NCBI GenBank assembly: GCA_028710275.1 | Contig: JAQTUL010000001.1 | Coordinates: 921-64,920 of the forward strand | Direction of reading: 5' to 3' | Source of the DNA: Candidatus Colwellbacteria bacterium | GTDB lineage: Bacteria; Patescibacteriota; Minisyncoccia; UBA6257; Colwellbacteraceae | DNA length: 64,000 nt | Shown: one piece after another, positions 791 to 54,071 of the stretch | How the letters are laid out: every line of letters starts with the position of its first letter | How positions within the stretch are numbered: position 1 is the stretch's first letter | Program-made: the position numbers and the translations under genes | Notes under the pieces: model-generated | What the model saw: the letters and a program-made list of their open reading frames with translations, nothing else | Databases searched by the model: none | What the model was told of the DNA's origin: nothing

Positions 791-805
791 AAAAATCACT
801 TTTTC
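791..805 (-). promoter_or_regulatory. Upstream motif instance (sense 5'-AAAAAGTGATTTTT-3') for CDS 1..721
   Basis: + strand reads aaaaatcactttttc. Same element found upstream of >=10 other minus-strand genes. Confidence 0.5.
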
Positions 806-991
806 TGGAGACTGGACTAGTAATATAGAGGGCCTAGTGGCCTTCTGTATTATTCTGGTAGACTAAGTGGAGAGTGGAAGTAGGTGTTTAGACACAATCG
901 GTCTTGAGCCACTTATTGACCTCTGCAATATCAGAGATCTCCACTCCGTCCGTCGGAACCAAAACTGTCGCGTACAGTGATGGGTCGAAGT

Positions 992-1369
992 TCAGATACT
1001 TGGAGAGAGCAACACCGATGTCACTCTTCCAGTGATCATGTATGACATGTACATTTGAGAGACGAAGGAGAAACGTGCGAGGAAGTTCCACATCTCATTG
1101 GTCACATTCTCCTTCAGAAGAAAAGCCTGGAAAAAGGGCTTCATCTCATTTCGCAGTGCGAAGAAGTTGGTGAGTCCGCGAGGCTTGATGAACCAACCAT
1201 CCTTCCGGATTCCGTAGAACGGAAATGCCATTCCCTTAACATGAGAGTTCTCTCCGGTGGAGATGTAGAAGTAGGAACCGTTGACCTTGAAGATTGTTCG
1301 GTCCTTGTGTGTGATGGATGATCCAGTGGGGGAAACGACAGATGATGAGGTAGAACGAGTGAGAGTCAT
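992..1369 (-). CDS. Hypothetical protein. Probably continues into ORF 888..1091 via a frameshift
   Basis: ORF with upstream motif at 1418-1433. The overlapping -frame ORF 888..1091 encodes a protein-like continuation (HVIHDHWKSDIGVALSKYLNFDPSLYATVLVPTDG...). Confidence 0.4.
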   Translation of the reverse strand: MTLTRSTSSSVVSPTGSSITHKDRTIFKVNGSYFYISTGENSHVKGMAFPFYGIRKDGWFIKPRGLTNFFALRNEMKPFFQAFLLKENVTNEMWNFLARFSFVSQMYMSYMITGRVTSVLLSPSI

Positions 1370-1417
1370 AGTGGAGAAGTTACTGTGAGAAGTGAAATAG
1401 AGTGTGTGGTATCGAAA

Positions 1418-1433
1418 GAAATCACTTTTTTCT
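1418..1433 (-). promoter_or_regulatory. Upstream motif instance (aaatcactttttt on + strand) for CDS starting at 1369
   Basis: Motif about 50 nt upstream of ATG. Confidence 0.45.
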
Positions 1434-1456
1434 CTTATGAAGGCCTGCCTTCTGTA

Positions 1457-2059
1457 TTAGTCGAATGCATCAGCTGCCTTAGTGATGGCTCGCGCATCGT
1501 CCCCGATGGACCCCACATCTTTCAGATGAGGACGAACGAGGTTGCGGGCTCTCCACGCGGTAGACGCGTCCTTCACGAGATCCATGGCCTCAATAATAAG
1601 ACGACGAGGTTCGTCTTTGAGCTCCTTCTCCATATCGAGGCGAATCTTCTCATCAATCTCCCTGAATGCCGGAGTCCACTTCTCTTGGGAGATCTTCACC
1701 GCATCCATCAGACGAGGAAGATCATTCTCCTCAGCGAGAGATTCGAAGTCAGAGATACAGATTCTCTGAATACCGGGATTCGAATGGTCGTTCATCTGTT
1801 TGATAGCAAGATCGATGAGTACCTCGGTAGCCTCTTTGTTCATCGGATCCTCCCGAATGAACTCGACCACCTCAATACATTCTGGGTGATGATCCGCAAA
1901 ATAAGTGAGATGGTGAATGTCTTGCGGAACGAACAGATCCTCCGCACAGACGCATTCGGGCCATGAACCGAGAATATCGAACATCTTGGTCACCTCCAGA
2001 CGTTCTGATGTGGAGTATATCGTAACATTCGCGACCTGAGTCTCGAAAACATCCTTCAT
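1457..2059 (-). CDS. Hypothetical protein (about 200 aa). Start most likely the internal ATG at 2059 rather than 2191
   Basis: The track ORF runs to 2191, but the upstream motif (2171-2185) and a G-poor leader would then be inside coding sequence (MVKKSDF = AAAAAGTGATTTT). A downstream ATG at 2057-2059 gives MKDVFETQ.... Confidence 0.45.
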   Translation of the reverse strand: MKDVFETQVANVTIYSTSERLEVTKMFDILGSWPECVCAEDLFVPQDIHHLTYFADHHPECIEVVEFIREDPMNKEATEVLIDLAIKQMNDHSNPGIQRICISDFESLAEENDLPRLMDAVKISQEKWTPAFREIDEKIRLDMEKELKDEPRRLIIEAMDLVKDASTAWRARNLVRPHLKDVGSIGDDARAITKAADAFD

Positions 2060-2170
2060 GACTCGAGATGCGAGGGGAGAAATGAGTTGTAGCAGACATT
2101 GGGAATGTGACGTTGAATGAGAGTGGTTGGTTGTTGTGAAGAGGTGATTTCTACACTCTCTTTTGGGTAG

Positions 2171-2185
2171 AAAATCACTTTTTTT
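2171..2185 (-). promoter_or_regulatory. Upstream motif instance (aaaatcacttttttt)
   Basis: About 110 nt upstream of the ATG at 2059. Flanked by an inverted copy gtgatttct about 25 nt away. Confidence 0.45.
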
Positions 2186-2195
2186 CACCATAAGC

Positions 2196-4335: not shown

Positions 4336-4365
4336 CCGGTTATAAGGTGTCCGGATTCAATTTAT

Positions 4366-4393
4366 AAAACAAAATCCCATGGGATTTTGTTTT
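4366..4393. terminator. Perfect 28-nt palindrome aaaacaaaatcccatgggattttgtttt followed by attcgattt; 3' hairpin between convergent genes
   Basis: Verified as a perfect inverted repeat. First of three related ATAAAACAA...TTGTTTTATTCGATT elements. Confidence 0.55.
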
Positions 4394-4431
4394 ATTCGAT
4401 TTGGTGGTAGACTAGTATTCTCTCTGATGGT

Positions 4432-4719
4432 TTACTCCATCAGAGACTCCATCTCTGGAACCATCTCCATGAGAAATCTGACCTCGTCGTCGACGTTGCT
4501 TCCTTGAGCCATCACGAATGTCATGATCTCACGCGCAGTCTCCAGTCGAGAGTTCTCATTGTCAACGAAACGATCCACGAGATGGAGAAGATCCTCCTTG
4601 ATCTTCTCCGTGTTGATGTACTTGCTGTTGAGATGCCCGAAGTTCTTGTCGATGATATCATTCATGATGAATGAAACGGGGGTGACAATCTGAATGACAA
4701 CGGAGTTGGATGAAGACAT
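4432..4719 (-). CDS. Hypothetical small protein (96 aa, start MSSSNSV)
   Basis: The track ORF extends to 4860, but the motif (4774-4788) would be inside coding (RKSDF). ATG at 4717-4719 chosen. Confidence 0.4.
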   Translation of the reverse strand: MSSSNSVVIQIVTPVSFIMNDIIDKNFGHLNSKYINTEKIKEDLLHLVDRFVDNENSRLETAREIMTFVMAQGSNVDDEVRFLMEMVPEMESLME

Positions 4720-4773
4720 AGTGGAAAGAATGTGTTGTGATGGAGTGGTGATATTGGATTGTATATTTGGATA

Positions 4774-4788
4774 AAAATCACTTTTTCT
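4774..4788 (-). promoter_or_regulatory. Upstream motif instance (aaaaatcactttttc)
   Basis: About 55 nt upstream of ATG 4719. Confidence 0.45.
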
Positions 4789-4837
4789 ACTGATGGGACA
4801 TAACGATAAGATGATCCAACTCATTCTTCCAGTTGTA

Positions 4838-4869
4838 AACGCTTCTTTATAAAACAACACTCTACGGAA
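4838..4869. terminator. Hairpin ataaaacaaca-N10-tgttgttttat, followed by tcgattcgg; 3' end of gene 4956..5318
   Basis: 11-bp inverted arms. About 85 nt downstream of the stop at 4956. Confidence 0.5.
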
Positions 4870-4955
4870 TGTTGTTTTATTCGATTCGGGTGGGGTCGGT
4901 GTATACTAGTTTCTTCACCATCCTGTTTTCAGATCATTCAGCGAATGTAGAAGTG

Positions 4956-5318
4956 TTACCACATAATAAGTTTGAGTTTTTCGTACAGTGCGTTAAGTTG
5001 ACATTTCATTTCAACAAGCTCCTCGAGTGTCACATCCTCAACATCAGTTGTCTCAGCGATGAAATCATTCGGATCCGAATGCCGTTCTATAGCGTAAAGA
5101 ACAAATTTCGCGTACTGATTGTCTTTAGTGTCACGAATCATAATGTGATGATCATTATCAATGATCGATATTATTGCATCTTTGTTTTGGTAACCAATAA
5201 GTTGTGGAAATCTAGTATCCTCGGGATACTCATCCCGAGGAGTCAGACAAACCTTTCCATTGATTTTGTTAGGAATACCTTTAGTCTTAACCCTTGTAAA
5301 AGATACAGGTGCAGCCAT
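4956..5318 (-). CDS. Hypothetical protein (120 aa)
   Basis: ORF with the motif 40 nt upstream and the conserved hairpin downstream. Confidence 0.4.
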   Translation of the reverse strand: MAAPVSFTRVKTKGIPNKINGKVCLTPRDEYPEDTRFPQLIGYQNKDAIISIIDNDHHIMIRDTKDNQYAKFVLYAIERHSDPNDFIAETTDVEDVTLEELVEMKCQLNALYEKLKLIMW

Positions 5319-5358
5319 GAGTGAGAAAGAGAAGTGAATTAGGTGCGTGGTATTGGAT

Positions 5359-5373
5359 AAAAAATCACTTTTC
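5359..5373 (-). promoter_or_regulatory. Upstream motif instance (aaaaaatcacttttc) Confidence 0.45.
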
Positions 5374-5405
5374 TGTATCGATACCGATGATAGGCTAAGT
5401 GGAAC

Positions 5406-5484: not shown

Positions 5485-6081
5485 TTAGTACTTCTTCACA
5501 GAGTACTGCTGCTGAGTCTCATGGCACGACTTGCAGTAGTCCATCTTGGTCAGGTTCGGGCAGTTCCATCCCTTGCCGACAACGTATCCATCCTGATCAC
5601 GACTGCGTCCTCCGCGGCACTGCTGATCCGGACGCTTGTTGATCTCCTCAAATCGAGCTTGCTTAGCCTCCCATCGAGCCTTGCTCTCTGCAGATCTGCG
5701 CTCGTTCTCCTCTTCACGAAGAACCTTCCACTGTTCAGTGCAAGCTCCACACTGCTTGCTAGTCTCCTTGCACTTTCCTCCACAGTTGTTCGGGCAGTAC
5801 TTCAGTCCGTGGAAAGTCATGTAGACATCCTCGTCGTGAGAGTAGCGACACTTCGATCCGAACTTGCAGAGGGGCTTCCCAGTTGAAGCATCCAGTCCAT
5901 CCGCAGTCTTGAAGTGTGAGTAGCAAGGACGCTGTTCATCCGGAACCTGTGAAGCATGCTTGGACGACGCAGCAGCAGGCTTGGACGCAGCAGCAGGCTT
6001 GGACGACGCAGCAGCAGGCTTGGGAACTTGAGACTTCACAGGCTTGGAATCCGAGAGAACAGAGAACATGTTGGAAGACAT
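5485..6081 (-). CDS. CCCH-type zinc-finger protein with PAAAS(S)K low-complexity repeats
   Basis: CYSHFKTADGLDASTGKPLCKFGSKCRYSH fits C-x8-C-x5-C-x3-H. Further Cys/His cluster at the C-terminus. Confidence 0.5.
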   Translation of the reverse strand: MSSNMFSVLSDSKPVKSQVPKPAAASSKPAAASKPAAASSKHASQVPDEQRPCYSHFKTADGLDASTGKPLCKFGSKCRYSHDEDVYMTFHGLKYCPNNCGGKCKETSKQCGACTEQWKVLREEENERRSAESKARWEAKQARFEEINKRPDQQCRGGRSRDQDGYVVGKGWNCPNLTKMDYCKSCHETQQQYSVKKY

Positions 6082-6157
6082 CTTAGTAACGAGAGTTGGG
6101 AGAGAATGAGTTGTCGGTGAGTGTTGTGGAGGGGTGATTTATCCTTCTAGTATTCTC

Positions 6158-6173
6158 AAAAAATCACTTTTTC
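6158..6173 (-). promoter_or_regulatory. Upstream motif instance (aaaaaatcactttttc)
   Basis: About 80 nt upstream of ATG 6081. Inverted partial copy ggtgattt at 6133-6140. Confidence 0.45.
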
Positions 6174-6192
6174 TAGGATTTTACCTTAGCAT

Positions 6193-7035
6193 TTAGGCCT
6201 CCAAAGAAATCTTGGAGATATTGAAGATTGTCTCCTTTTCCTCATCTCCACGTGTAAAAGTTCTGTTGTTGAATAATTTCATAAAACTATTTCGTAATCT
6301 CTTTACGGAGATCTTTTCATTACAAGAGGATTCTTTTATCAGAGAGATTGCTGATTTCTCTAACAGAGAGATTTTCCTATTAGCTAAAGCTTTCTCATCT
6401 GGTTCGTATTGAATAATCTTTAACAAACGACCGAGACAATCTTCGTATAGATCATAAGATTCTATATTCCACGAAGAGAGAATTTCCGAACAGATATCCA
6501 TATTTCGCGTCCGATAAAATATATCCACTGTTCTATTTATATCACTTGGCCATCCGGTAATTTTAAAAGTTCTCAGCATGGAGAGAATATGTGATGTTGA
6601 GAAATCATCTATAGTATCAGACAGATCGTTCTTATTGAAAATCTCTTTCATGAGTACATGACATACTTCGATATCGGTTTCGTATCTACCCTCTATTTTT
6701 TGTAGACGCTCTGTAGTCTGTTCTACTTCCGAACAATCTTCGAGAGTCCAGACTGAAACTCTCAAATCGGTATCTATATCGAAAGTTACATCAGTAGGAT
6801 GAGAATTGATCTCTATATTTAACCACCCCTCTATATCTTCACGTGAAGGATCTTTTCCAGGAATATTGCAATACTTCCTCAGACTCTCCGTGTCGGTTTC
6901 GTCTCCTTTGAGGGTATGTAGAAGATACTCTACAACTATTTTTCCAGCCTTAATCTGAAGGTCTGATTCTGAAACGAGAAAATGCTTTCTCTTTCCTCTA
7001 ATAGAAGAGACATCTATCGAATAGTATTGTGACAT
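6193..7035 (-). CDS. Hypothetical protein (280 aa)
   Basis: Long clean ORF. No motif recognised. Confidence 0.45.
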   Translation of the reverse strand: MSQYYSIDVSSIRGKRKHFLVSESDLQIKAGKIVVEYLLHTLKGDETDTESLRKYCNIPGKDPSREDIEGWLNIEINSHPTDVTFDIDTDLRVSVWTLEDCSEVEQTTERLQKIEGRYETDIEVCHVLMKEIFNKNDLSDTIDDFSTSHILSMLRTFKITGWPSDINRTVDIFYRTRNMDICSEILSSWNIESYDLYEDCLGRLLKIIQYEPDEKALANRKISLLEKSAISLIKESSCNEKISVKRLRNSFMKLFNNRTFTRGDEEKETIFNISKISLEA

Positions 7036-7039
7036 CTTG

Positions 7040-7067
7040 ATTATGTTTAATTATAATTAAACATAAT
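7040..7067. terminator. Perfect 28-nt palindrome attatgtttaattataattaaacataat immediately after the stop of 7077..7355
   Basis: Verified palindrome. Confidence 0.5.
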
Positions 7068-7076
7068 GAATCAATT

Positions 7077-8042: not shown

Positions 8043-9134
8043 CTAAATATTAAATTTATTCAAAACATTCGCAATCGTAACATTTGATACCCCGTAATCT
8101 TTTCCTAATTGAGTTTTTGTTACATCTTCATTGTTATATCGGTCATATATCTCTTGTCGTTGTTCGTCAGTTAATTTATGATGACGAGTTTTAAAATCTG
8201 GAGGAATATACGTCTCGTCAATCCATGATGTATTTCTTACAACATTATTTATACATGCGCGTGAAACACCATATTTTTCCATCATATCCTTTTCTCTTAA
8301 TTCTCCCGAGCAATAATCTTCTCTGATTCTCTTTACTATCTCCTTGTTCAGTTTAGCAACAACTCTTTTAGTTTTCGTTGTCGGTTCAGATACGGTTTTA
8401 AATTTTTCAGATTTCTCACCGTACTGTATATTAGTTCGTTTTCGATGACAATACTGACACAGCATTCTACACTTATCGATCTCCTTCTGGATTCTTTCTG
8501 TGCTATAAGTAGATCCCGCCATATTACTTATCATATAACTCTTAGTCTCGACATCTATATGATCAAATTCATAAAATGAGAGAATAGTGTTATCGAATAC
8601 ATCGGTGCAGCCTTCCATTTGACATCCACCGATTTTTACCTTTACTTCATCGACATACTTTCTATTTCTCTCCTTTCTCTTTCGTTTACTCGCAAGTCTC
8701 TTATCAGTTTCATCGATATTATTATCTCGTTCTTCTCGCTCGATATCTCTTTGTGATCTTGTATGTCTCGCGTGACATTTTCCGCATATAGTTCTCACTT
8801 TATCAAGTTCGATAAGTAGACTTTCCATCTTGAGTATAGCCGTTACATTTTTATATTTCTCTTTCGGATCGATATGATCAAAATGTATATGACTCATATC
8901 ATCGTCACCACATAGTTCACATTTATCTTTATGACTTTCAACAACATCTTTGGCTCTATTAGCTGTTGTTTTATAGCCCAGTCTCTGTACACGACAATCA
9001 AGACACATTTTAGTTTCTTGACCATTTCTCAAGTCTGCAAACTGTGATAGATTTTTTTCATCTTCACATATGTAACAGGTCTTGACTAATTCAATATAAA
9101 TCTCTTCGTCCGACTCTACTAAAGGGTTTGCCAT
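8043..9134 (-). CDS. HNH-type endonuclease-like protein with two Cys/His nuclease-like motifs and a C-terminal helix-turn-helix
   Basis: CELCGDDDMSHIHFDHIDPKEKYKN and GGCQMEGCTDVFDNTILSFYEFDHIDVE (HNH-like C..C...H.DHI). C-terminal LGKDYGVSNVTIANVLNKF is HTH-like. Confidence 0.4.
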   Translation of the reverse strand: MANPLVESDEEIYIELVKTCYICEDEKNLSQFADLRNGQETKMCLDCRVQRLGYKTTANRAKDVVESHKDKCELCGDDDMSHIHFDHIDPKEKYKNVTAILKMESLLIELDKVRTICGKCHARHTRSQRDIEREERDNNIDETDKRLASKRKRKERNRKYVDEVKVKIGGCQMEGCTDVFDNTILSFYEFDHIDVETKSYMISNMAGSTYSTERIQKEIDKCRMLCQYCHRKRTNIQYGEKSEKFKTVSEPTTKTKRVVAKLNKEIVKRIREDYCSGELREKDMMEKYGVSRACINNVVRNTSWIDETYIPPDFKTRHHKLTDEQRQEIYDRYNNEDVTKTQLGKDYGVSNVTIANVLNKFNI

Positions 9135-9250
9135 TATAACTATGAGTATAAATACATTTATAATTATTCAGTCCATATTCACTTTTGAATTGTGTGGACG
9201 AGCACTAATTGAGATAATTAATTAATTAATTATCTTGAGAATAATTAATT

Positions 9251-10069
9251 ATGTCATTTAGAAAAAATCACTGTCGAGATGACTCGATAAACTCTTCCGA
9301 TTCATGTAACTCTTCTGGTTCGGACTCGGACTCATCTTGTAACATTCGTAAATGTAAACCGCAACATTGTAATATACAGATAATTAACCAAGGGTGGTGT
9401 CCTCAAGGAAATTCAATTACGGGTGCTACTGGCCCTCAAGGAAATTCAATTACGGGTGCTACTGGACCTCAAGGAAATTCAATTACGGGTGCTACTGGAC
9501 CTCAAGGAAATTCAATTACGGGTGCTACTGGACCTCAAGGAAATTCAATTACGGGTGCTACTGGTCCTCAAGGCGATTCAATTACGGGTGCTACTGGTCC
9601 TCAAGGAAATTCAATTACGGGTCCTCAAGGAAATTCAATTACTGGTGCTACCGGCCCGTCTAATGTTCTTGGATATGGATACGTATATAATCTCACATCT
9701 ACTACAGTAGCGATCGAATCACCAATAAATTTTGATACCAACGGGCCTCTCCTTGGAATTTCTCATACACCATCTTCACCTTCGATTATATTTTCCGAAT
9801 CGGGAGTATATTCAATTATATTTTCTGTATCAGGAACTCAACCTAATCAGTTTGCAATATTTATAAATGGTGTTCCTGATGGTTCGACAATTTACGGATC
9901 GGGAGCGGGAACACAACAAAATACTGGTCCATCAATAATTTTAATAACTTCAGGTGACGTATTGACTCTGGTAAATCATAGTTCAGCTTCAGCTGTAACA
10001 CTGGATTCTGTGATTGGTGGTACACAAGCAAACGTAAATGCCTCTATACAGATAGTGAGAATCGCATAA
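9251..10069 (+). CDS. Tandem 11-aa repeat protein ([11 protein letters not shown] x~10) with C-terminal C1q/TNF/BclA-like beta-sandwich tail; putative surface fibre
   Basis: 33-nt in-frame repeats. The repeat is not strict G-X-Y collagen. C-terminus [36 protein letters not shown]...[11 protein letters not shown] resembles C1q/BclA C-terminal domains. Confidence 0.5.
9405..9655 (+). repeat. 33-nt tandem coding repeat (~7.5 copies)
   Basis: tcaattacgggtgctactgg(a/c)cctcaaggaaat repeated. Confidence 0.8.
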
Positions 10070-18518: not shown

Positions 18519-18578
18519 CGTTGAAAGTGAGTTAAGATCAATGATCGAAAGTGAGTGATATTCCCTTCATTAATATTT

Positions 18579-18595
18579 AAAAAATCACTTTTTAT
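18579..18595 (-). promoter_or_regulatory. Upstream motif instance (aaaaaatcacttttta), overlapping the stop codon of the upstream gene Confidence 0.45.
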
Positions 18596-38881: not shown

Positions 38882-38912
38882 TTGTGAAGTAAATACTTAT
38901 ATAATACGTACA

Positions 38913-38926
38913 GAATCACTTTTTGA
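38913..38926 (-). promoter_or_regulatory. Upstream motif variant (agaatcactttttg) ~35 nt before ATG 38881 Confidence 0.35.
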
Positions 38927-39218: not shown

Positions 39219-40321
39219 TTAATCGATACATCCCGCTCTAACAATATCCACTTTTCTCCCTACTCCACCTCCATTCTCGTCGTCTGGACCGCAATACCAC
39301 TTCCAGAAACACTGAGACATATCCTTTGTTAGCAGATACAATCGGTACCAGTTTCTGATTCGTAGAGACTTTACCTTAGCTCTGAATTTCTTGAGTTTAT
39401 TCAAATGTATTTTCTGAAGTGACAAATCGTGTTTAAATTTATTCTCACTCATCCAACACCAATTCCATGGTATTTCCGGATGCGCGAGAACAAACTCGGG
39501 AGTAATGTTTGGATTTTTACTCAACCACCTCCAATCACATGGTTTCTCCAGATGAGAGAGAACAAACTCGGGGGTGATGTTCGGATTACTACTCAACCAC
39601 TCCCAATCTCATGGTTTTTCCGGATGAGTGAGAATAAACTCGGGGGTGATGCTCGGATTGTTACTCAACATATACCAATTCCATGGTATTTCCGGATGCG
39701 CGAGAACAAACTCGGGGGTGATGTTTGGATTTTTACTCAACCACCTCCAATCCCATGGTTTCTCCGGATGAGAGAGAACAAACTCGGGGTGATGTTCGGA
39801 TTACTACTCAACCACTCCCAATCCCATGGTTTTTCCGGATGAGTGAGAATAAACTCAGGGGTGATGTTCGGATTGTTACTCAACATATACCAATTCCATG
39901 ATATTTCCGGATGCGCGAGAACAAACTCTGATGTGATGTTTGGATTTTTACTCAGCCAATACCAACTCCACGGTTTCTCCGGATGTGCGAGAACAAACTC
40001 GGGAGTGATACTTGGATTACTACTCAAAGATCTCCAATCACACGGTTTCTCCGGATGAGCGAGAACAAACTCAGGGGTGATATTCGGATTTCTACTCAAC
40101 AGATCCCAATCCCACGGTTTCTCCGGATGAGCGAGAACAAACTCGGGAGTGATACACGGATTTCTACTCAACAGATCCCAATCCCACGGTTTCTCCGGAT
40201 GAGCGAGAACAAACTCGAGAGTGATGTTCGGATTATTACTCAACAGATCCCAATCCCACGGTTTCTCCGGATGTGCAAGAACAATTAATTCTAATGGAGA
40301 CATGGGTGAAGTTGATGACAT
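39219..40321 (-). pseudogene. Paralog of 37796..38881, split into ORFs 39737..40321 and 39219..39596 by a 1-nt deletion in a G-run near 39781 (frameshifted pseudogene or homopolymer error)
   Basis: The unit at ~39775-39790 reads aaactcggggtgatg versus the consensus aaactcggg(a/g)gtgat. The reading frame then ends ...NITPSLFSLIRRNHGIGGG*. Downstream ORF 39219..39596 keeps the same repeats and the C-terminal module. Confidence 0.5.
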
Positions 40322-48696: not shown

Positions 48697-51576
48697 TTAT
48701 TCTAGATAGTGAATGGTCAGAGGTCCTTCTCTTCCAATACGATTCGCTCGGCCAGTAAGCTGAATCTCCATCAACGGATCCATCTGATGGTAGTAGATGA
48801 TGTGACCAGTCATCTGAAGATTGATTCCTGCACCATTGAACTTCGCGTTCAGGAAGATGGTATCAACATCTCCTGTCTGATACATTGCCAACTTCTTCTC
48901 TCTTGCCTCTCGAGTACCTTTGATCTCCACATACTCTGTGTTGTTATCTTTGAACGAATCTTTGATGAGATCGAATGACTCGTCGTGTGCCGAGAAGACG
49001 ATGAACTTTTCACCGGGATGGTCCTCGATGATCTTGATGATAGTCTCCGGTTTGCTCAACACAATTTTGTTTTTCTTTTTCTTTACCTCTACGAAACTAT
49101 CGTCACCCTCTTCATCCGAATCATCGAATACTATCGGAGCGGGTGATTTTTTGTCCGTCACCGAGATCAGAGCACCAACCTTTACCTCTGATCGACACAT
49201 ATGACATGTAGGATTGATCTTCAACCAGTCAGTCACACACTTGAGACATACAATATTCTGACAACAGGGAAGTAGAACAGGGTTATTAAGAGTACACGAA
49301 CAGATGCTACAGTCGTCTTCAAGAATCTTGGCGAATCTCATCTTAATTAGTGCGAGCTTCTCTTTGATCTCGATTACTCTATCAACCCACATCTTGTGTC
49401 GTTCCTTATGAGCAGCATCCTTGTTCCTCAATGGGTAGTGCTCTTCAACCTTCATCTCTGCTCGCTCTAGTTCCTCCTTCTTATTGGCTGTCACAACCTC
49501 GATCAGATTTCTCGGACCATCCTCTCCTCCAAGATGTTTGATCGCTCCATCAATATGTCCCGCTGCGATCATTGCGACGACCTCCTCTCCGACCATGTCA
49601 CCAACCACTTCGAGAACTCCTGGTTGAATACATTTGTGAGTGATAACCTTTGTTTGTGGCATTGAGAACGATGCTTTGACGAAATCATCTTCATTCTTCA
49701 CGAGCATATATCCAAATGTGATTGGAGAGATAGTACTGAAGATCGTCTTGATGAAGTGTTGTTTTCTTCCTCTTATAGAACTCAAGTTAGGAAATGTGGC
49801 TGTAACAAACCAGTAGAATCCAGCGTACACACTATTCATCGATGGAATGTGTGTGGAAGCAGCCTCGTCAAACACAAATCTCTTCCATGAGAACTGTACA
49901 AACTGCTCCACGAATTTGTTGTACATCTTGTCCGAACAGAGAATGATGTGGTAGTCGTTAGGATCGATCTCCATGTGAGCCTTCTTGGTCACTGTGTGAC
50001 AAGAGATTTTCTTCGCTCGTCCAATCTCTTTTTCCCATTGACCGATGATCGAATTGGATGCAACGATCAGAGTACAGTCCAATCTCTCCTTCTTCACCCG
50101 TCGTCGAGTAATATAAGTTGAAGATGGACCGAATGCTTCGATCTCTTCATACTCGAATGGTGTATCCATATCCCATTCCATTTTATCACGATCTATTACA
50201 GCCACCATACTCATTGTGTTGTGTGTCACTGTGAAATCACCCAGAAGAAATCTTCTGTTACCAGTAATAGAAAATCCATAGTAATCATCAACTTCCAATT
50301 TCTCGACAATGATACTTCCGCAGAGCTGATCCTTGTTCGGATTTGAAACCGCTTTCTTTCGTTCGAGAAGAACTGGTATCTCTTCAATACCTTTTCCGGA
50401 GAAACTCATAAGATTATACTCACCAGTTCTTTTTTCTCCCTTATACATACACCATTTATCCACCTTCTTGATTGTACATCTGAATCCCAGAGATCGACAA
50501 AGATATACAATATCATTTGCGAGAACTGTATTTTTCTGTGCGATTTCGTAACATCCACGGGAATAGTATCCATCCGAATCGATAAGACCGGCGAGAAGAC
50601 GAAGACGATTTTCTCTTGAGTTGATCTTATAATCTTCGGGAATGTGTTTGTTGTCCATCAGCTTACGATCAGTCAGAAAGTTTCTCACACGATTAGATCG
50701 TTTCAATCCTTTGTTCTCTTTCGGAATGAGTCTGTAATGTATATCGTAAACTCTCAAATCAAAATCGGGAAATGCATTGAATAAATATTCTACAATTTCT
50801 TTATCATCCGTAGTTATAGATTGGTCTTGTGAATCTCCATCACCCAACCACATTCCCAAAAAGTAAGGATCGATTTCAACTTTCTTTTCAGGGAACTCGA
50901 CTCCGACTCTATATCCTTTCAGATGTTGCTGAATGGTTTTCGGAAGTGTGAGATACTTTTTTACTTCCACATCGACATATGGGTTGATGTATCCTAATGA
51001 TTCAAGAAACTTATCAGCCTCATTTTGGGCATCTTCGATTGAATAGTTACAATACGAGAATGTTTTCGATTTGAACTTCAGTTCTTCTGGTACGAAATAA
51101 TGAGCTTGCACTCGTCTCGATCCAGCCATTGTTACTTTCACTCCGGACATTTTCAATGAGAGAATATGAGATTCATTCACTGTATAATCCTCACCACCGT
51201 TGGTCTGCTTGATCTTATACATTGTTTCTTGTCCTCTCGCGAGTGAAAGAACTTCTCTTGAAGTAGAATCGTCACCCATCAACAAGTCTCCAACAACTAC
51301 ATCCTGAACCATTTTTATTTTACCGTCAAACATGAGTATGGGAGTGTCAAATTTATGGCACTTACCGTATCCTGGAATGTCCCCGAACACTCCCATGGTC
51401 ATTTCTATGTATCGTCCTCCGAGATCTCTCTTCTTCTCTCGCTCAATCTTCTCGAGATCAAGAACCGACACAACCTGATGAGGGAAGAGTTTGATTGTCA
51501 AAGATGATGCGATATCTCCTCGCTCCTCTTTGCGGCCGTCATCGATCGGTTCTCCTTTGCGTTCTTCGAGATCCAT
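48697..51576 (-). CDS. SNF2-family helicase with embedded RING finger (Rad5/Rad16/HLTF-like), interrupted by an intein in the Walker A motif
   Basis: Exteins: LFPHQ...GDIPGYGK|[intein]|TMSMV. FDEAAS (DExx). RING CSICSCTLNNPVLLPCCQNIVCLKCVTDWLKINPTCHMCR. Helicase-C motif QLTGRANRIGREGP. Confidence 0.7.
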   Translation of the reverse strand: MDLEERKGEPIDDGRKEERGDIASSLTIKLFPHQVVSVLDLEKIEREKKRDLGGRYIEMTMGVFGDIPGYGKCHKFDTPILMFDGKIKMVQDVVVGDLLMGDDSTSREVLSLARGQETMYKIKQTNGGEDYTVNESHILSLKMSGVKVTMAGSRRVQAHYFVPEELKFKSKTFSYCNYSIEDAQNEADKFLESLGYINPYVDVEVKKYLTLPKTIQQHLKGYRVGVEFPEKKVEIDPYFLGMWLGDGDSQDQSITTDDKEIVEYLFNAFPDFDLRVYDIHYRLIPKENKGLKRSNRVRNFLTDRKLMDNKHIPEDYKINSRENRLRLLAGLIDSDGYYSRGCYEIAQKNTVLANDIVYLCRSLGFRCTIKKVDKWCMYKGEKRTGEYNLMSFSGKGIEEIPVLLERKKAVSNPNKDQLCGSIIVEKLEVDDYYGFSITGNRRFLLGDFTVTHNTMSMVAVIDRDKMEWDMDTPFEYEEIEAFGPSSTYITRRRVKKERLDCTLIVASNSIIGQWEKEIGRAKKISCHTVTKKAHMEIDPNDYHIILCSDKMYNKFVEQFVQFSWKRFVFDEAASTHIPSMNSVYAGFYWFVTATFPNLSSIRGRKQHFIKTIFSTISPITFGYMLVKNEDDFVKASFSMPQTKVITHKCIQPGVLEVVGDMVGEEVVAMIAAGHIDGAIKHLGGEDGPRNLIEVVTANKKEELERAEMKVEEHYPLRNKDAAHKERHKMWVDRVIEIKEKLALIKMRFAKILEDDCSICSCTLNNPVLLPCCQNIVCLKCVTDWLKINPTCHMCRSEVKVGALISVTDKKSPAPIVFDDSDEEGDDSFVEVKKKKNKIVLSKPETIIKIIEDHPGEKFIVFSAHDESFDLIKDSFKDNNTEYVEIKGTREAREKKLAMYQTGDVDTIFLNAKFNGAGINLQMTGHIIYYHQMDPLMEIQLTGRANRIGREGPLTIHYLE
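50218..51360 (-). mobile_element. Intein (381 aa) with two LAGLIDADG homing-endonuclease motifs, inserted in-frame between GYGK and T of the P-loop
   Basis: Starts CHKFDTPILMFDG (Hint block A, Cys1; codon tgc at 51358-51360). LAGLIDADG motifs FLGMWLGDGDS and RLLAGLIDSDGYY. Ends FTVTHN|T (His-Asn then Thr; codons verified at 50215-50223). Confidence 0.75.
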
Positions 51577-51669
51577 GGTGAGGCCGTGTTAGAATAGAGA
51601 AACTTGTCTTTATTTATGGAGAGCGTTGCGATGTAACTTTTGGTTGTGTACACTCTCCGTAAACTATCT

Positions 51670-51685
51670 GAAAACTCACTTTTTC
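51670..51685 (-). promoter_or_regulatory. Upstream motif variant (gaaaactcactttttc) ~95 nt before ATG 51576 Confidence 0.4.
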
Positions 51686-51715
51686 GGGAGATATGTCTCC
51701 GACTTAAATTAGCAA

Positions 51716-52753
51716 TTATTCTCTCATCAGATGTTCAAGATAGTACTCGTCTTCGTTTCTGCTTTCAAAGTAAAGTTGTATATCATCCAACAATTCCGAT
51801 GGACATTTATCTGTTGGTATTAAGAGTCCATTATCATCTGTTGTTGTGTGAATGAACGGATCGTACTGATGTTTGACGAGAATTTTCCATCTCTCTGAAT
51901 ACTGACGATTCTTCTTGCTTCCATGAAAGTAATGACTAATAACTCCTGGTGTATATCCTAGACGTAGACCTCTACATCTGAGATCAAAATCGATAATACT
52001 CTTTTTATATCCTTCCGATACCTCTTCGTTTACACTCTTGATACCGTTTTGAATTAAACTGAGAAATAGATTGTGATCACCAGACCCGAGAATAGATACT
52101 TCATATAGACCATTCATCTGCTCGTATGCTTCTCTAGTCATTGCGATATTGAATCCGGGATGCCAGTAGTTTATTCCTCCTCCGAATGAGTATTTTTTAC
52201 CAGTTGTGTATTGATAACCGAAACTAGAGAATATAGACATCGGATTGAGATCAAGATTGAGATCTCGACAGTGAGAAAACATCTGTACAATATCTCTAGT
52301 ACCGTTAAGAATCTTAAGAGTATCCAATGCGAAATGTGGATTGTCAAACTCAATATCAGCGTCACAAAAAGCCACGGCTTTCCATCCTGAAGGGAGAAGT
52401 TTTGTCCCGAGATTAAGCATATTCTCTTTCATCCACAGAGCGGGAGAATCAGTAGTTAGTTGAAGATGTTTTCTATTTCCTTTTTCGGTTACTTGAAAAT
52501 GTTGTGACGATTTTCCCGCGATACTGTAAACAAGTTCTACGATATAAAGATCTATCTCTTCTTTATAATCTCTCTCGATTCTTGCGATAAATTCTTTAGC
52601 CAAGATATACCGTCTTGCATATTGACATACATTAGAAATACAGATCACCATATTAAGCTTCTCCTCGATGGGAGAGTTATTTTTTATAGCTTGATGTATA
52701 TCATTTTCGATATACTCAATATCGTCGATCTCAATACCGTTGATAATCGTCAT
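51716..52753 (-). CDS. Putative glycosyltransferase (DxD-type nucleotide-sugar transferase), tentative
   Basis: AFCDADIEFDNPHF contains a DxD motif in a hydrophobic context. Sits beside the chitin-synthase/surface-protein genes. Confidence 0.35.
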   Translation of the reverse strand: MTIINGIEIDDIEYIENDIHQAIKNNSPIEEKLNMVICISNVCQYARRYILAKEFIARIERDYKEEIDLYIVELVYSIAGKSSQHFQVTEKGNRKHLQLTTDSPALWMKENMLNLGTKLLPSGWKAVAFCDADIEFDNPHFALDTLKILNGTRDIVQMFSHCRDLNLDLNPMSIFSSFGYQYTTGKKYSFGGGINYWHPGFNIAMTREAYEQMNGLYEVSILGSGDHNLFLSLIQNGIKSVNEEVSEGYKKSIIDFDLRCRGLRLGYTPGVISHYFHGSKKNRQYSERWKILVKHQYDPFIHTTTDDNGLLIPTDKCPSELLDDIQLYFESRNEDEYYLEHLMRE

Positions 52754-52865
52754 TTACTTCTAAATTTAAACATTTAATTGGTAATAACATAACCGGAAGG
52801 TTATGTTATTCTTGTTGCGGTTATGTTATTCTTGTTGGTGATATCGGTTATGTGTATGGATGGGA

Positions 52866-53756
52866 TTAGCACTCTTTGGATTTCATGAAATCCAGACGAT
52901 CTTCATCATCATCGTCAGTTGGAGATAGGGTATCATCATCGGACCCACAATCATTGGATCCGTATCCAGTACATCCATCAAACATGTTGAATTTACAGTC
53001 CGAGTCCCCGGAATATCCACTCGACTTAGTGGAGAGATCTCCAACCATCAATTTGATGGCTGCGTATGACTCAGCTCGTGTTGTCGTACGATCAAACATA
53101 CTCACCGACTTTTTAGGCGGAGTCTTTCTTTCTTCGATCTCTTTCTCCAAGTATTCCAAGTATTCCAAGTATTCAGTCGCTCCAAAATATTGAGCGATAA
53201 AGACGAACTGTTTACTGAAACTATTTCTTCGTTTCCACAACGTCAAATACTCATCTATGAGTTCCTTTCTCCTCTCCGGTGAGAGATGCTCCCTGATCCA
53301 CTTGTTTGCGAACTGAAACATAGTGGTCGCTGATGCGTTGTGATCACGAATAACCATCCACCGCTCCAGAGTGAAAGGTGTCGATACCGGAATCATATCC
53401 CACATTCCGTTCTCGAAAACGAAGTCGATGTAGTAGTCCTTGGTCTTGTCGAATGCAGTCGGAATCTCAGTGGTGATTCGTAGGAAGGTATTCGGAGTGA
53501 TGAGTTTCATCAAAAACATTTTCTCTGGGTTAGAGAAGATATCGTGATACTCTGTTGGAGTATTCTTCAAGTGGTTGAAAATCTGATCCCCGATCGGAGG
53601 GACAAATTTACAACGTGTTTTCCGCAGACAACCGGACGAATGGCAGTGAGAAGAGGCATGTTTGAGGAAGTGAGTGGATTGAGGAAGTGAGTGGATTGAG
53701 GAAGTGAGTGGATTGAGGAAGTGAGTGGATTGAGGAAGTGAGTGATATTGGATCAT
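52866..53756 (-). CDS. Hypothetical protein with N-terminal 17-bp-repeat-encoded SLPQSTHFLNPLTSSIH repeats and an EYLEYLEYLE motif
   Basis: ORF. Motif 10-25 nt upstream. Confidence 0.4.
   Translation of the reverse strand: MIQYHSLPQSTHFLNPLTSSIHSLPQSTHFLKHASSHCHSSGCLRKTRCKFVPPIGDQIFNHLKNTPTEYHDIFSNPEKMFLMKLITPNTFLRITTEIPTAFDKTKDYYIDFVFENGMWDMIPVSTPFTLERWMVIRDHNASATTMFQFANKWIREHLSPERRKELIDEYLTLWKRRNSFSKQFVFIAQYFGATEYLEYLEYLEKEIEERKTPPKKSVSMFDRTTTRAESYAAIKLMVGDLSTKSSGYSGDSDCKFNMFDGCTGYGSNDCGSDDDTLSPTDDDDEDRLDFMKSKEC
53664..53748 (-). repeat. 17-bp tandem repeat (gaggaagtgagtggatt x ~5) inside the 5' coding region; frame rotates every copy
   Basis: Visible direct repeats. Period is not a multiple of 3. 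Confidence 0.75.
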
Positions 53757-53765
53757 ATATTACCA

Positions 53766-53781
53766 GAAAAATCACTTTTTC
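53766..53781 (-). promoter_or_regulatory. Upstream motif instance embedded in a near-perfect 30-nt palindrome attaccagaaaaatcactttttctggtaat
   Basis: Palindrome centred on TCAC. Confidence 0.45.
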
Positions 53782-53811
53782 TGGTAATATTGACGTATGG
53801 CGTCGGTTATT

Positions 53812-54018
53812 TCATACCATCTTGATCAGATTTCTATGTGTCTTATCTGTACAGACAGATTCACCTATGATCTTCCGTGTGTTTTTAGGCTTTAGAAGTC
53901 CACACACCCAACACCATTTTCGTTTACACATCTCACATGTTATCAGATTACACCCCTTTATCTTCTCAGTATAGACTTCACATCCCGGACATTGTTTAAA
54001 CAGGATCTGATTGAACAC
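53812..54018 (-). CDS. Small IBR/RING2-type (in-between-RING-like) zinc-finger protein (68 aa)
   Basis: CPGCEVYTEKIKGCNLITCEMCKRKWCWVCG fits C-P-x-C-x-x-x-I-E-K-x-x-G-C-N-x-x-T-C-x-x-C-x-x-x-W-C-W-x-C. Motif about 40 nt upstream (54055-54071). Confidence 0.45.
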   Translation of the reverse strand: MFNQILFKQCPGCEVYTEKIKGCNLITCEMCKRKWCWVCGLLKPKNTRKIIGESVCTDKTHRNLIKMV

Positions 54019-54054
54019 TCATTTTGAACAAGTATTTATACTTATCATGACCAG

Positions 54055-54071
54055 TATAATATCACTTTTTG
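54055..54071 (-). promoter_or_regulatory. Upstream motif variant (ataatatcactttttg) Confidence 0.35.

Follow-up and report, generated by a model that had tools for sequence, protein, structure and literature searches.

Probable promoter element in an uncultured giant virus: the NCLDV early core in a G version, extended in a subset of genes

The early promoters of nucleocytoplasmic large DNA viruses (NCLDV) have short cores, such as AAAANTGAAAA in vaccinia virus (VACV), AAAATTGA in mimivirus and CroV, and AAAAATGAT in AaV (PMC5294985, PMC5917014). The vaccinia core lies at −25 to −13 from the transcription start, and the AAAAT of IIV-6 at −19 to −15 (PMC5294985). The element AAAAAGTGATTTTT, which recurs in the 64-kb stretch of DNA analysed here (the window), corresponds to AAAANTGA with N = G, and differs by one base from AAAA(T/A)TGA, the early promoter that mimivirus-like viruses use. 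An earlier sequence-only reading did not recognise it as a published giant-virus motif. However, it fits the NCLDV early core AAAANTGA, and A and T versions precede other genes of the window. Our results indicate that AAAAAGTGATTTTT is probably a promoter element of an uncultured NCLDV, namely this lineage's G version of the AAAANTGA core, which is extended in a subset of genes. Promoter activity, start site and the temporal class suggested earlier are inferences from sequence. The virus is most likely mimivirus-like, a placement drawn from its motif usage, its hairpins and its gene content.

The + strand of the window contains nine matches to AAAAATCACTTTTT at ≤1 mismatch (791, 1417, 2170, 4773, 5360, 6159, 18580, 51671 and 53767), all on a single strand, against 0.19 expected from shuffles. 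None of 100 shuffles reached nine, which confirms the recurrence of AAAAAGTGATTTTT. Among the 100-nt regions upstream of 63 genes, the top 8-mers in an unbiased count were AAAGTGAT and AAAAGTGA. These occurred upstream in 10 sense and 2 antisense copies, and only once in sense in 55 kb of coding sequence, a density ratio of ~59. A sequence profile built from the eight strong sites scored 25–36 bits on these training sites, 13.4 bits at 38892-38924, 12.6 bits at 51665-51685, and ≤10 bits everywhere else. Support for the class definition comes from only eight full modules, all within 64 kb, plus ~6 in relatives, with a profile trained on the same sites. At least 11 genes had been credited with the element; eight of these sites are full modules, but the others comprise two partial sites and one core-only site.

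The eight full modules precede minus-strand genes and consist of (G)AAAAAGTGATTTTT, a weak AATA block at +14 to +17, TCAC, and a leader of 19–86 nt. In all eight, TCAC lies 30–31 nt downstream of the G of GTGA, behind a spacer of 26–27 nt with 0–5 G. The inverted partial copy described earlier is confirmed and takes the form (A/T)(A/T)(A/T)TCAC at a fixed offset. Module 1 (719..805; 27.3 bits) has its core, GAAAAAGTGATTTTTC, at 790-805, TCAC at 766-769, and a 48-nt G-poor leader to the ATG at 719-721; its open reading frame (ORF) continues past the left edge of the window. Module 2 (1367..1431; 25.3 bits; core 1416-1431, TCAC 1392-1395, 26-nt leader, ATG 1367-1369) precedes the gene of a 125-aa orphan protein. 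In module 3 (2097..2184; 27.9 bits; core 2169-2184, TCAC 2144-2147) the first ATG (2097-2099) misses the frame of the 200-aa ORF starting at 2059 by 1 nt. The leaders of modules 4 and 5 contain no G at all: module 4 (4717..4787; 34.6 bits; core 4772-4787, TCAC 4748-4751, 32-nt leader, ATG 4717-4719) serves a 95-aa gene (4432..4719), and module 5 (5316..5374; 28 bits; core 5359-5374, TCAC 5334-5337, 19-nt leader, ATG 5316-5318) a gene encoding 120 aa. Module 6 (6079..6173; 30.6 bits; core 6158-6173, TCAC 6134-6137, 56-nt leader, ATG 6079-6081) precedes a 198-aa product with a weak CCCH zinc-finger match. Module 7 (18516..18594; 31.2 bits; core 18579-18594, TCAC 18555-18558, 40-nt leader, ATG 18516-18518) belongs to a 376-aa orphan, and its core extends into the TAA stop codon of 18592..19527, the gene upstream. 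Module 8 (53657..53781; 35.6 bits; core 53766-53781, TCAC 53742-53745, ancestral ATG 53657-53659) has an 86-nt, G-free leader containing a 17-nt × 4.9 tandem repeat.

The suspected over-extension of two ORFs is supported, both for 1457..2191, which reads through the module 3 promoter, and for the GTG-started 4432..4860. ORF 52866..53756 is likewise over-extended, because its orthologues start at the ATG 3' of the leader. The partial minus-strand site GAAAAAGTGAGTTTTC (51670..51685; 12.6 bits) lies 103 nt before the ATG of a SNF2/RING/intein gene (48697..51576) and lacks TCAC at +30; the blocks TTTACGGAGAGTGTACACAACC and CATAAATAA downstream of it are kept in the related contig L012. The other partial site, CAAAAAGTGATTCTGT (38910..38925, minus strand; 13.4 bits; read as AAAAAGTGATTCT at 38913), lies 38 nt before the ATG of a repeat protein (37796..38881), a geometry matching the short leader of the generic class. 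The core-only site CAAAAAGTGATATTAT (54056..54071, minus strand; 5.3 bits), also read as AAAAAGTGATATT from 54055, has no intact ORF 3' of it; there is an IBR-type zinc-finger frame, with an ATG (54022) that is 1 nt out of frame.

Pooled over the modules, the sequence from TCAC to the ATG contains 3.1% G and 41% C, compared to 11.6% G and 14.3% C in the 40 nt directly before other genes. G-depletion of the leader had been placed from the motif onward; it can be sharpened to TCAC onward, with the depletion beginning at +25 to +28, just ahead of TCAC. Since, in addition, the distance to TCA(C/T) is kept in orthologues with unalignable spacers, TCA(C/T) may mark, or closely follow, the transcription start. 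The predicted start at +26 to +32 would lie farther from the core than in vaccinia or IIV-6. Alternatively, transcription might begin close to the AATA block, around +15.

Canonical RNA polymerase II promoters have their TATA at about −30 to −23 from the initiator. With the A of TCAC as +1, GATTTTTY falls at about −30 to −23, and the modules could be read as host-type core promoters in which the A/T tract acts as TATA, ~30 nt ahead of an Inr-like TCA(+1), and the cell's machinery transcribes host-like, GC3-rich genes. Codon third positions of the module genes are indeed atypical (C3 0.27 vs 0.16 and G3 0.28 vs 0.19 in other genes; p about 1e-4), the window's six highest-C3 genes are all module genes, and the trend is repeated in the relatives L012, L014 and L139. 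We nevertheless regard this explanation as very improbable. The core AAAA-N-TGA is not TATAWAWR, but a viral early signature common to other genes of the same virus and to its relatives. Moreover, the module genes are orphans for which no cellular homologues were detected, and the virus group encodes transcription proteins of its own. The 1112-aa SNF2 protein of the window matches vaccinia NPH-I and VETF-S, and in relatives a coding sequence resembling RPB1, the largest RNA polymerase subunit, lies nearby, as identified by eye from one conserved motif rather than by a search.

The symmetry of the module might point to a dedicated, probably dimeric, class-specific regulator layered over a generic early promoter, binding GTGA(T)n ... 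(A)nTCAC half-sites about three helical turns apart, so that TCAC would be a second half-site and not an initiator. TCAC and GTGA are exact reverse complements, the match is longer at several sites (GTGATTT(T) facing (A)AAATCAC), and the half-sites have a fixed centre-to-centre spacing of 30–31 bp. The class is also discrete, with profile scores dropping from 25–36 bits to ≤13 bits, and in this genome G is tied to it (8/8 extended sites vs 7/23 other AAA[AGT]TGA sites in the window). However, orthologues with an A core (L014, at +29, and L221, at +30) carry TCAT, which is not the reverse complement of ATGA; hence, symmetry is lost while position is kept. The G-depletion starting just before TCAC is what would be expected of a transcript start, and no candidate regulator was identified. 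Regulation by such a protein therefore seems unlikely to us. G at the variable position appears to be typical of the genome and not class-defining, because orthologues in more distant relatives have A there, yet still show the T-run, the G-free leader and, at ~+30, TCA(C/T).

Among 1.59 Mb of related giant-virus contigs, the core occurs 99 times with G, 102 with C, 527 with A and 333 with T at the variable base. The G form is thus at background level in relatives (1.4–1.6 Mb of contigs), where A and T versions prevail. Strong profile matches occur only in the closest relatives, L012 and L014. Across 67 loci of related giant viruses, the 132 sites of the A/T form are most frequent at 30–44 nt from the ATG, with a T-rich stretch at +6 to +8; the leaders in the window are longer than in these related viruses. 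L012, whose SNF2 protein is 85% identical to that of the window, keeps the element before both orthologous genes as conserved blocks with diverged flanks. Five orthologous promoters of a 296-aa gene retain AAAA(G/A)TGA, then a T-rich stretch and TCA(C/T), the latter at +29 in L014 and at +30 in the remaining four. A homologue of the module 7 protein in L139 (44% identical) has AAAAATGATTATTTT and a G-free leader.

It could be argued that the modules are by-products of duplication or mobile repeats, with a promoter-plus-leader cassette copied around the genome without independent selection. Six of the eight modules crowd into the 6.2 kb next to the contig end, some spacers have short strings in common (e.g., ATCCAATATCAC, GAATACTAGA), and two L012 sites belong to recently duplicated genes. 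Yet, the eight downstream proteins show no detectable paralogy when compared with each other, and the aligned modules are conserved only in the core, AATA and TCAC columns, with spacers and leaders otherwise unalignable. The same holds between orthologous promoters, where the spacer turns over and the core and TCA(C/T) at ~+30 are retained. Terminal repeats and target duplications were not seen, and orthologous sites persist across genomes down to 39–52% protein identity. This origin is extremely improbable in our view.

The palindrome reported at 53757..53790 consists of two 15-nt arms, 100% complementary, around an asymmetric 4-nt centre, GTGA, within the module 8 core. It is predicted to form an RNA hairpin of −20 kcal/mol (z −7.9) and probably doubles as a 3'-end hairpin for the transcription unit upstream. 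The inverted repeat is retained in the L219 orthologue, and in the L221 orthologue AAAAAATGATTTA is flanked by 17-nt hairpin arms of different sequence. Known termination models include the mimivirus-type 'hairpin rule' and T-runs such as the poxvirus U5NU or asfarvirus poly-T. The near-palindrome might accordingly be chiefly a 3'-end or termination signal of the upstream gene, by hairpin or T-run, instead of a promoter. Every extended site is located in the intergenic region of a tandem (same-strand) gene pair, so that each is also 3' of a gene, and at 53757..53790 and in L219 and L221 strong hairpins (−16 to −28 kcal/mol) have the core at their apex, where the differing arms of L221 suggest selection for structure. 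The window has many intergenic palindromes and encodes an NPH-I-like helicase, and TTTTTNT is depleted in coding sense (18 copies vs 76 of AAAAANA). In contrast, six of the eight modules have a motif-centred hairpin that does not outperform shuffled sequence (dG 0 to −4.7, z −1.5 to +1.3), and only 6 of 63 genes contain TTTTTNT in the 80 nt past their stop codon. The element begins anywhere from −2 to 295 nt after the upstream stop codon, but its downstream layout is fixed. In L219 one finds the same promoter, along with ~20 nt before its core, behind a different upstream gene, which links the element to its downstream gene.

Furthermore, three upstream genes have separate hairpins between stop codon and motif. 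The hairpin ATAAAACAAAATCCCA/TGGGATTTTGTTTTAT at 4364..4395 lies 3' of the stop codon of the module 4 gene, and sequence-related hairpins occur at 4849-4880 and 5406-5439, each between a module gene's stop codon and the next module promoter; TTGTTTTAT has 8 matches vs 1.5 expected. These hairpins are candidate terminators separate from the motif. Short-form sites also occur in divergent regions without 3' ends. For instance, the generic short form (CAAAAGTGAAT) at 9176..9189 on the minus strand, 48 nt before the ATG of 8043..9134, cannot be a terminator, because no gene ends in its divergent intergenic region. A mainly terminating role is thus decidedly unlikely, and we retain the promoter interpretation. 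Part of the local conservation may still serve 3'-end formation where the core lies in a strong hairpin apex right after the upstream ORF (53775, L219, L221).

Generic G-form sites similar to 9176..9189 are found at 10502-10515, 15023-15036, 22012-22025 and 36321-36334 (the last in a divergent region, too); another lies on the + strand, at 16995-17008. The + strand genes had been reported to lack the element. This is true of the extended form, but the short form AAAGTGA precedes the + strand PTH2 gene at 17035. Absence from the + strand is uninformative, because only ~1.7 occurrences are expected with ~11 + strand genes against ~52 on the minus strand. The proposal that the element is the promoter of a gene subset draws on its upstream sense position, its enrichment over coding sequence, its conservation, its staying with the downstream gene in L219 and its distinct gene set; the strand argument has no bearing on it. 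Other genes of the window have the canonical forms, AAAAATGA before seven and AAAATTGA before three, 39–54 nt from the ATG; AAAACTGA occurs upstream of none. An example is GCTTAAAATTGATTC (7036..7076, minus strand), 39 nt before the ATG of 6193..7035 and followed by a hairpin (7037-7070). Further sites of the A/T form are found before the genes ending at 7355, 13187, 26705, 27368, 35126, 40934, 43193, 47807 and 48618.

The core A5-G-TGA-T5 would most likely be read by virus-encoded transcription machinery, presumably an early-transcription-factor-type DNA binder with the viral multisubunit RNA polymerase. In the subset, the core is extended by the T-run, the weak AATA block and TCA(C/T) 30–31 bp downstream. 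RNA without G can form neither G-C nor G-U pairs, and a leader lacking G is therefore expected to be unstructured and free of upstream AUGs. Such a leader could promote efficient translation initiation with little dependence on helicase activity, by analogy with the G-free leaders of plant viruses and the poly(A) leaders of poxviruses. The variant core, fixed TCAC, G-free leader and GC3-rich orphan ORFs may together mark one co-regulated class, in which similar terminator hairpins would belong to the package of three neighbouring genes. While this kind of promoter is itself known, what appears to be new is a lineage-specific one-base variant joined to an unusually long, C-rich and nearly G-free leader.

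The DNA element upstream of a subset of minus-strand genes is sequence-conserved, position-constrained and gene-linked, and it belongs to the AAAANTGA family. Its recurrence was confirmed: AAAAATCACTTTTT, read on the plus strand, has nine matches at ≤1 mismatch where 0.19 were expected, with identical orientation in all. The sequence-only reading had counted at least 11 genes with the element. One architecture is indeed common to eight minus-strand sites, hereafter called modules, whereas the sites near 38.9, 51.7 and 54.06 kb score far lower. With a purely sequence-based profile, trained on the same eight sites that top its scores, the modules reach 25–36 bits, compared to 12–13 bits for the sites at 38.9 and 51.7 kb and 5 bits for the site at 54.06 kb. 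The same reading had taken the absence of the element from plus-strand genes as the mark of a class, but we reject strand specificity as a meaningful feature.

On the sense strand, the modules start with (G/A)AAAAAGTGATTTTT. The octamer AAAA-G-TGA is invariant in all eight and in the 12 aligned sites that include relatives, and its fifth position is G in every full module. Counted from the G of GTGA, a weakly conserved AATA lies at +14 to +17. TCAC follows at +30 in six modules and at +31 in two, a spacing that could shift by ±1 nt, as 5' frame problems in several genes suggest assembly indels. A leader of 19–86 nt separates TCAC from the ATG, and the core-to-ATG distance is 50–119 nt. These features were determined from one 64-kb window plus a few short related contigs. 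Six of the eight modules crowd into the window's first 6.2 kb, next to the contig end. With locus tag PHG66_00130 at about the 26th gene, the left edge of the window appears to coincide with roughly gene 1 of the 152,625-nt contig, and hence this left-hand cluster is not extendable.

When 8-mers were counted without bias in the 100-nt regions upstream of 63 window genes, AAAGTGAT and AAAAGTGA came first (10 genes), followed by AAAAATGA (7 genes) and AAAATTGA (3 genes), while AAAACTGA occurred in none of these regions. Upstream enrichment, for which a genome-wide k-mer check had been proposed, holds for the 64-kb window and the 100-nt regions covered here: AAAAGTGA was found 10 times in sense and twice in antisense orientation upstream of genes, and once in 55 kb of coding sense strand, a density ratio of ~59. 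Such upstream placement and depletion from coding sequence is expected of the AAAANTGA family, in sense orientation and no more than ~100–150 nt before gene starts.

The vaccinia early-gene consensus is AAAANTGAAAA, with a critical core at −25 to −13 (PMC5294985), and the vaccinia early promoter is bound by the VETF heterodimer (PMC5294985; PDB 7amv for VETF). Mimivirus and CroV share the early promoter AAAATTGA, and Aureococcus anophagefferens virus (AaV) uses AAAAATGA(T) and AAAAATGAT (PMC5294985, PMC5917014, PMC11464507). The DNA polymerase promoter of IIV-6 is AAAATTGATTATTTGTTTT at −19 to −2, with a core that begins AAAATTGATTATTT (PMC5294985). Set beside these published cores, the motif reads as AAAA-N-TGA with N = G, plus a T-run. 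The earlier reading did not recognise it as a published giant-virus promoter motif, a view that these cores do not support. Judged by its sequence, the core is clearly a member of the established early-promoter family of vaccinia, mimivirus, CroV, AaV and IIV-6, a family associated with early expression.

All eight modules have the A-run, single variable base and TGA of the family, in agreement with the vaccinia consensus (PMC5294985). Since this consensus accepts any base at N, AAAAGTGA fits it literally. The strict Mimiviridae/AaV octamer (AAAATTGA/AAAAATGA) is not matched, because full modules have a G where T or A is required. Forms with A or T precede other genes of the window, and also orthologues in three loci of related giant viruses (L014, L139 and L221). 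This Mimiviridae/AaV form coexists with the G module in the window (10 genes) and predominates in related giant-virus contigs. The short ATG distance of the strict octamer class is likewise absent from full modules but present at generic sites, which have the G core without the extended parts (34–48 nt from the ATG; 34–54 nt for A/T and short G forms together).

The modules thus resemble the promoters of Mimiviridae/Imitervirales and AaV in their A-run, variable base and TGA, their sense orientation at ≤~100 nt before gene starts, their rarity in coding sequence and the T-rich stretch that follows. They differ in the G at the variable base, in a complete T5 run, by which the core becomes near-palindromic, in the conserved TCA(C/T) at +30, and in an ATG that lies 50–119 nt instead of 30–44 nt from the core, where the added length is a C-rich, G-free leader. 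In addition, the G module is limited to a subset of GC3-rich orphan genes. With vaccinia the modules share a bipartite layout, with a core and a start region at a set distance, and the window encodes an SNF2 ATPase similar to NPH-I and VETF-S. In contrast to vaccinia, which has an A-run after the core, the modules have T5, and the inferred distance from core to start is longer (~17–23 nt from the core end). The IIV-6 promoter also has AAAA-N-TGA immediately followed by a T-rich tract, compare AAAAAGTGATTTTTT. Neither AAAGTGA nor the G form was linked to Nucleocytoviricota in the searched literature, and searches with the motif string gave no relevant match. Nor does that literature describe a fixed TCA(C/T) combined with a long leader that is G-free and C-rich and with a set of GC3-rich orphan genes.

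A Pol II promoter, with TATAWAWR at about −31 to −24 and an initiator YYANWYY at +1, was considered as well. TCAC(C/T) is partly initiator-like, with mostly C at position +3, but the −30 region reads GATTTTTY rather than TATAWAWR, and we consider this candidate very unlikely.

How far does the module extend beyond this genome? In 1.59 Mb of related giant-virus contigs, the variable base was G at 99 sites, C at 102, A at 527 and T at 333, which puts the G form at background level. Among 67 non-redundant related loci, 132 A/T-form sites showed a sharp peak at 30–44 nt from the ATG (87/132) and were T-rich at +6 to +8, so that the T-run is also a family trait. Special to the present lineage are the G, the fixed TCAC and, above all, the long C-rich, G-free leader, with the ATG 50–119 nt away. 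Strong profile matches were obtained in two related loci only, L012 and L014, which share 85% and 76% identity with the window in the SNF2 protein. The extended module was absent from relatives at 67–68% identity, two of which came from a single-protein scan of JGI metagenomes. Searches for the exact bipartite pattern GAAAAAGTGATTTT-N18-23-WTCAC yielded nine single chance matches in IMG/VR and at least 118 in unrelated bacteria among GTDB genomes; neither search revealed new relatives. Exact-protein look-ups for contig extension or transcript-like contigs found nothing beyond short Logan contigs of the same genome.

The closest of these loci, L012, is syntenic with the window for the kinesin, SNF2, 300-aa, SNF2/RING and chitin synthase genes. 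Both orthologous genes of L012 are preceded by the element, with conservation centred on the core and the downstream blocks. The promoter of the 296-aa gene behind module 8 (core at 53766–53781) was compared among five genomes: the window, L219 (73% protein identity), L221 (52%), L012 (39%) and L014. In all five, AAAA(G/A)TGA, a T-rich stretch, TCA(C/T) at ~+30 (+29 in L014, +30 in the other four) and a G-free leader are kept, while the spacer is unalignable. Similarly, the L139 homologue (44%) of the 376-aa gene behind module 7 is preceded by AAAAATGATTATTTT and a G-free leader of >50 nt. These orthologues show that a gene keeps its class membership even when its variable base switches between G and A. 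Locus L219 carries the same promoter, including ~20 nt upstream of the core, behind a different upstream gene (the orthologue of window 37796–38881). Hence, the element is tied to the downstream gene.

All extended sites lie between genes on the same strand, and position alone therefore does not discriminate between a promoter of the downstream gene and a terminator of the upstream gene. In mimivirus, 3'-end signals follow a "hairpin rule", in which structure rather than sequence is conserved. Strong intergenic palindromes do occur across the window in a similar manner, and the core sits in a hairpin apex at module 8 and in L219 and L221. The element itself is conserved in sequence, in contrast to the hairpin rule, and its structure is weak in six of the eight modules. 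Five observations count against a terminator role. The motif lies anywhere from −2 to 295 nt from the upstream stop codon. Motif-centred hairpins are no better than shuffled sequence at 6/8 window sites (dG 0 to −4.7 kcal/mol, z −1.5 to +1.3). Three upstream genes own separate, related hairpins (ATAAAACAA...TTGTTTTAT; 4364–4395, 4849–4880 and 5406–5439) between their stop and the next motif. Short-form sites occur in the divergent intergenic regions 9135–9250 and 36285–36358. Finally, TTTTTNT follows only 6 of the 63 genes. Hairpin formation as the motif's general function was rejected on the weak structure in 6/8 modules, as was TTTTTNT as a general terminator, given how few genes it follows.

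Among the modules, a stable stem-loop right after a stop codon was found only at 53757–53790, where the reported 30-nt palindrome proved correct and consists of two 15-nt arms flanking GTGA. At module 8, as at the orthologous sites of L219 and L221, a strong hairpin holds the core in its apex, and its arms differ among the genomes. Here, the terminator hairpin of the upstream unit appears to overlap the promoter of the next gene. As a separate observation, TTGTTTTAT has eight matches versus 1.5 expected, and each of the three ATAAAACAA...TTGTTTTAT hairpins lies just downstream of a module gene. Possibly, these hairpins are a sequence-specific terminator type paired with this promoter class. 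Coding sense strands contain 18 TTTTTNT versus 76 AAAAANA, a four-fold scarcity that is not separated from codon bias. It recalls how poxvirus genes avoid the U5NU early terminator, yet may merely reflect Lys-rich coding. Neither Rfam 15, searched over the whole window at the gathering threshold, nor a tRNA scan gave any match.

G depletion between motif and ATG, as previously claimed, applies to the leader but not to the 26–27 nt spacer between core and TCAC. The pooled leaders (355 nt) contain 3.1% G and 41% C, and three of them have no G at all. For comparison, G and C amount to 11.6% and 14.3% in the last 40 nt before the start of other genes, and to 20.9% and 17.5% in coding sense strands. 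A scan that sought G-free, C-rich 30-mers regardless of ORFs was discarded because it was confounded by the antisense of purine-rich coding sequence. The scarcity of G predicts an unstructured leader without upstream AUGs. Viral translational leaders that are G-free or unstructured include the omega leader of tobacco mosaic virus (TMV) and the poly(A) leaders of poxviruses. The module leaders share with these the near-absence of G and the predicted lack of structure and of upstream AUGs. They differ in composition, being C/T/A-rich with CAC and CTC words where TMV omega has CAA repeats and poxviruses poly(A), and they are template-encoded in DNA, whereas poxvirus poly(A) leaders arise by polymerase slippage.

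Some leaders are repetitive. The G-free leader of module 8 contains a perfect tandem repeat of 4.9 copies of a 17-nt unit (sense CCACTCACTTCCTCAAT; 53662–53744, minus strand); in L219, the 73% orthologue has the unit just once. A 16-nt unit is repeated in L014 (11080–11160), directly downstream of the core at 11056, and an 18-nt unit in L012 (about 9740–9800, minus strand), downstream of AAAAAAAGTGA at 9828. The latter repeat lies inside a called gene (9323..9910) and may be coding, so clear leader repeats are confined to the window and L014. Leader length seems to grow by slippage.

The eight module genes are orphans. Seven of their proteins have no Pfam match and the eighth (5485..6081) has a weak, sub-threshold match to a CCCH zinc finger; homology searches with two of the proteins returned one and three relatives. 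Paralogy as the source of the recurrence was rejected, since the module proteins are not paralogues of one another. Codon usage also sets them apart, with C3 of 0.27 vs 0.16 and G3 of 0.28 vs 0.19 (Mann-Whitney p about 1e-4), and module genes occupy the top six places for C3 in the window. The bias extends into the first 13 codons (C 33% vs 19%, p = 5e-4). Module-type genes of L012, L014 and L139 are likewise the most GC3-rich of their loci. The earlier reading named two over-extended ORFs; at least three ORFs are over-extended and read through their own promoter, which makes the module usable for gene-start correction. Four genes, all on the minus strand, have 5' frame problems (53600–53660, 2059–2099, 53990–54025 and 14940–14962). 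Compared with L219 and L221, the 296-aa gene shows a 1-nt deletion behind codons ...GKH; the first ATG of module 3 (2099) is 1 nt out of frame with its 200-aa ORF, as is the ATG of an IBR-type zinc-finger ORF; and XRN starts GTG-GGT-ATT-CCT, where the MGIP start of its family needs an ATG. Assembly indels may account for these problems, as may real lesions or recoding.

The window has ~1 gene per kb, ~83% of its genes on the minus strand and a GC content of 33–44%. Judged from sequence, its genes are those typically found in a nucleocytoplasmic large DNA virus: an XRN exonuclease, NUDIX, PCIF1-WW domain protein, FCP1/NIF phosphatase, PTH2, asparagine synthase, chitin synthase with cytochrome b5 domain, kinesin-like protein, several RING fingers, PBCV basic-adaptor domain, EsV-1-7 cysteine motif, TnpB-like ORF and intein-bearing SNF2/RING helicase. 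The lineage is probably mimivirus-like. The best solved-structure matches of the 1112-aa SNF2 protein (54076–57414, minus strand) are vaccinia NPH-I (E 5.8e-13) and VETF-S. An identical protein in GenBank (MDD4930582.1) lies on a 152,625-nt contig labelled "MAG: Candidatus Colwellbacteria bacterium" (locus tags PHG66_...), and homologues are located on IMG/VR giant-virus MAG contigs. On some of the latter, all from more distant relatives, an apparent RPB1-like coding sequence, picked out visually by a single conserved motif, lies near the SNF2 homologue; no RNA polymerase subunit was found within the 64 kb. The gene content and the relatives argue that the Colwellbacteria-labelled contig is mis-binned. 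It appears to be a giant-virus contig filed in GenBank under a bacterial MAG, and as such is a case of mis-binning.

Several other features of the window deserve mention. Inteins are placed reciprocally: in the window, the SNF2/RING helicase (48697–51576, minus strand) carries a Hint and LAGLIDADG intein and the NPH-I-like SNF2 does not, whereas L012 and other relatives show the opposite, with an intein-splicing domain in the NPH-I-like protein and none in the SNF2/RING orthologue, of 579 aa (L012 10001–13807 and 15380–17119). The sequence TTAAACRATYACA lies 25–51 nt before three ATGs, at 15876–15888 (plus strand), 28648–28660 and 58443–58455 (both minus strand). Three matches compare with 0.84 expected and were reached in 5 of 100 shuffles, so the signal is marginal. 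Two of these genes (15906..16883 and 57537..58418) are C2H2 zinc-finger paralogues with 75% identity, and TTAAACRATYACA could be a further promoter element or mere shared ancestry. Two minus-strand genes (37796..38881 and 39737..40321) encode proteins with a 24-aa "PEKPWDW...ITPEFVL" repeat, in 72-nt tandem repeats of ~11 copies each, and a fragment of this family lies at 39219..39452. Unusual viral cargo, all on the minus strand, includes a fungal-type chitin synthase with cytochrome b5 domain (45333–47807, E 2e-173), a 1258-aa kinesin-motor-like protein (59973–63749) and the PCIF1-WW domain protein, of a cap-adjacent methyltransferase family (25737–26705). The chitin synthase and kinesin-like genes keep their synteny in L012.

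We infer that the element is bound by an early-type viral transcription factor together with the polymerase, and that transcription would start at TCA(C/T) or just ahead of it, ~26–32 nt downstream of the G of GTGA. This start is suggested by the onset of G depletion at +25 to +28, by a distance that is kept despite turnover of the spacer, and by the ATG of related viruses at ~+37. Alternatively, transcription might start near +15, following the geometry of IIV-6, or at about +22, as in vaccinia. The IIV-6 start lies ~15 nt past N, but here the downstream element and the onset of G depletion lie at +25 to +33. By analogy, the G-free leader would favour translation as a 5' UTR that lacks structure and upstream AUGs.

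A more far-reaching interpretation, drawn by analogy and in our opinion unlikely, is that the modules form a "privileged expression cassette". A variant early promoter with a fixed TCAC start, a template-encoded, G-free, C-rich leader as translational enhancer, GC3- and C-rich codons (with the bias reaching into the first ~13 codons) and dedicated terminator hairpins would then secure preferential translation of a few fast-evolving orphan proteins in the infected cell. The proposed function of the leader would be akin to that of poxvirus poly(A) and TMV omega leaders. If true, this would be translation-level control written in the leader, which is not described for giant viruses.

Few regulatory features of uncultured giant viruses are legible in their genomes, and promoter motifs are one of them. 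Here, the early core has drifted at its "free" position, from T/A to G, within a single clade, while its geometry was kept. What sets the sub-class apart is less its core than its unusual codon usage and its long leader, C-rich and free of G. Should this leader turn out to enhance translation, it would add a new layer of control in these viruses and offer a compact part for expression engineering.
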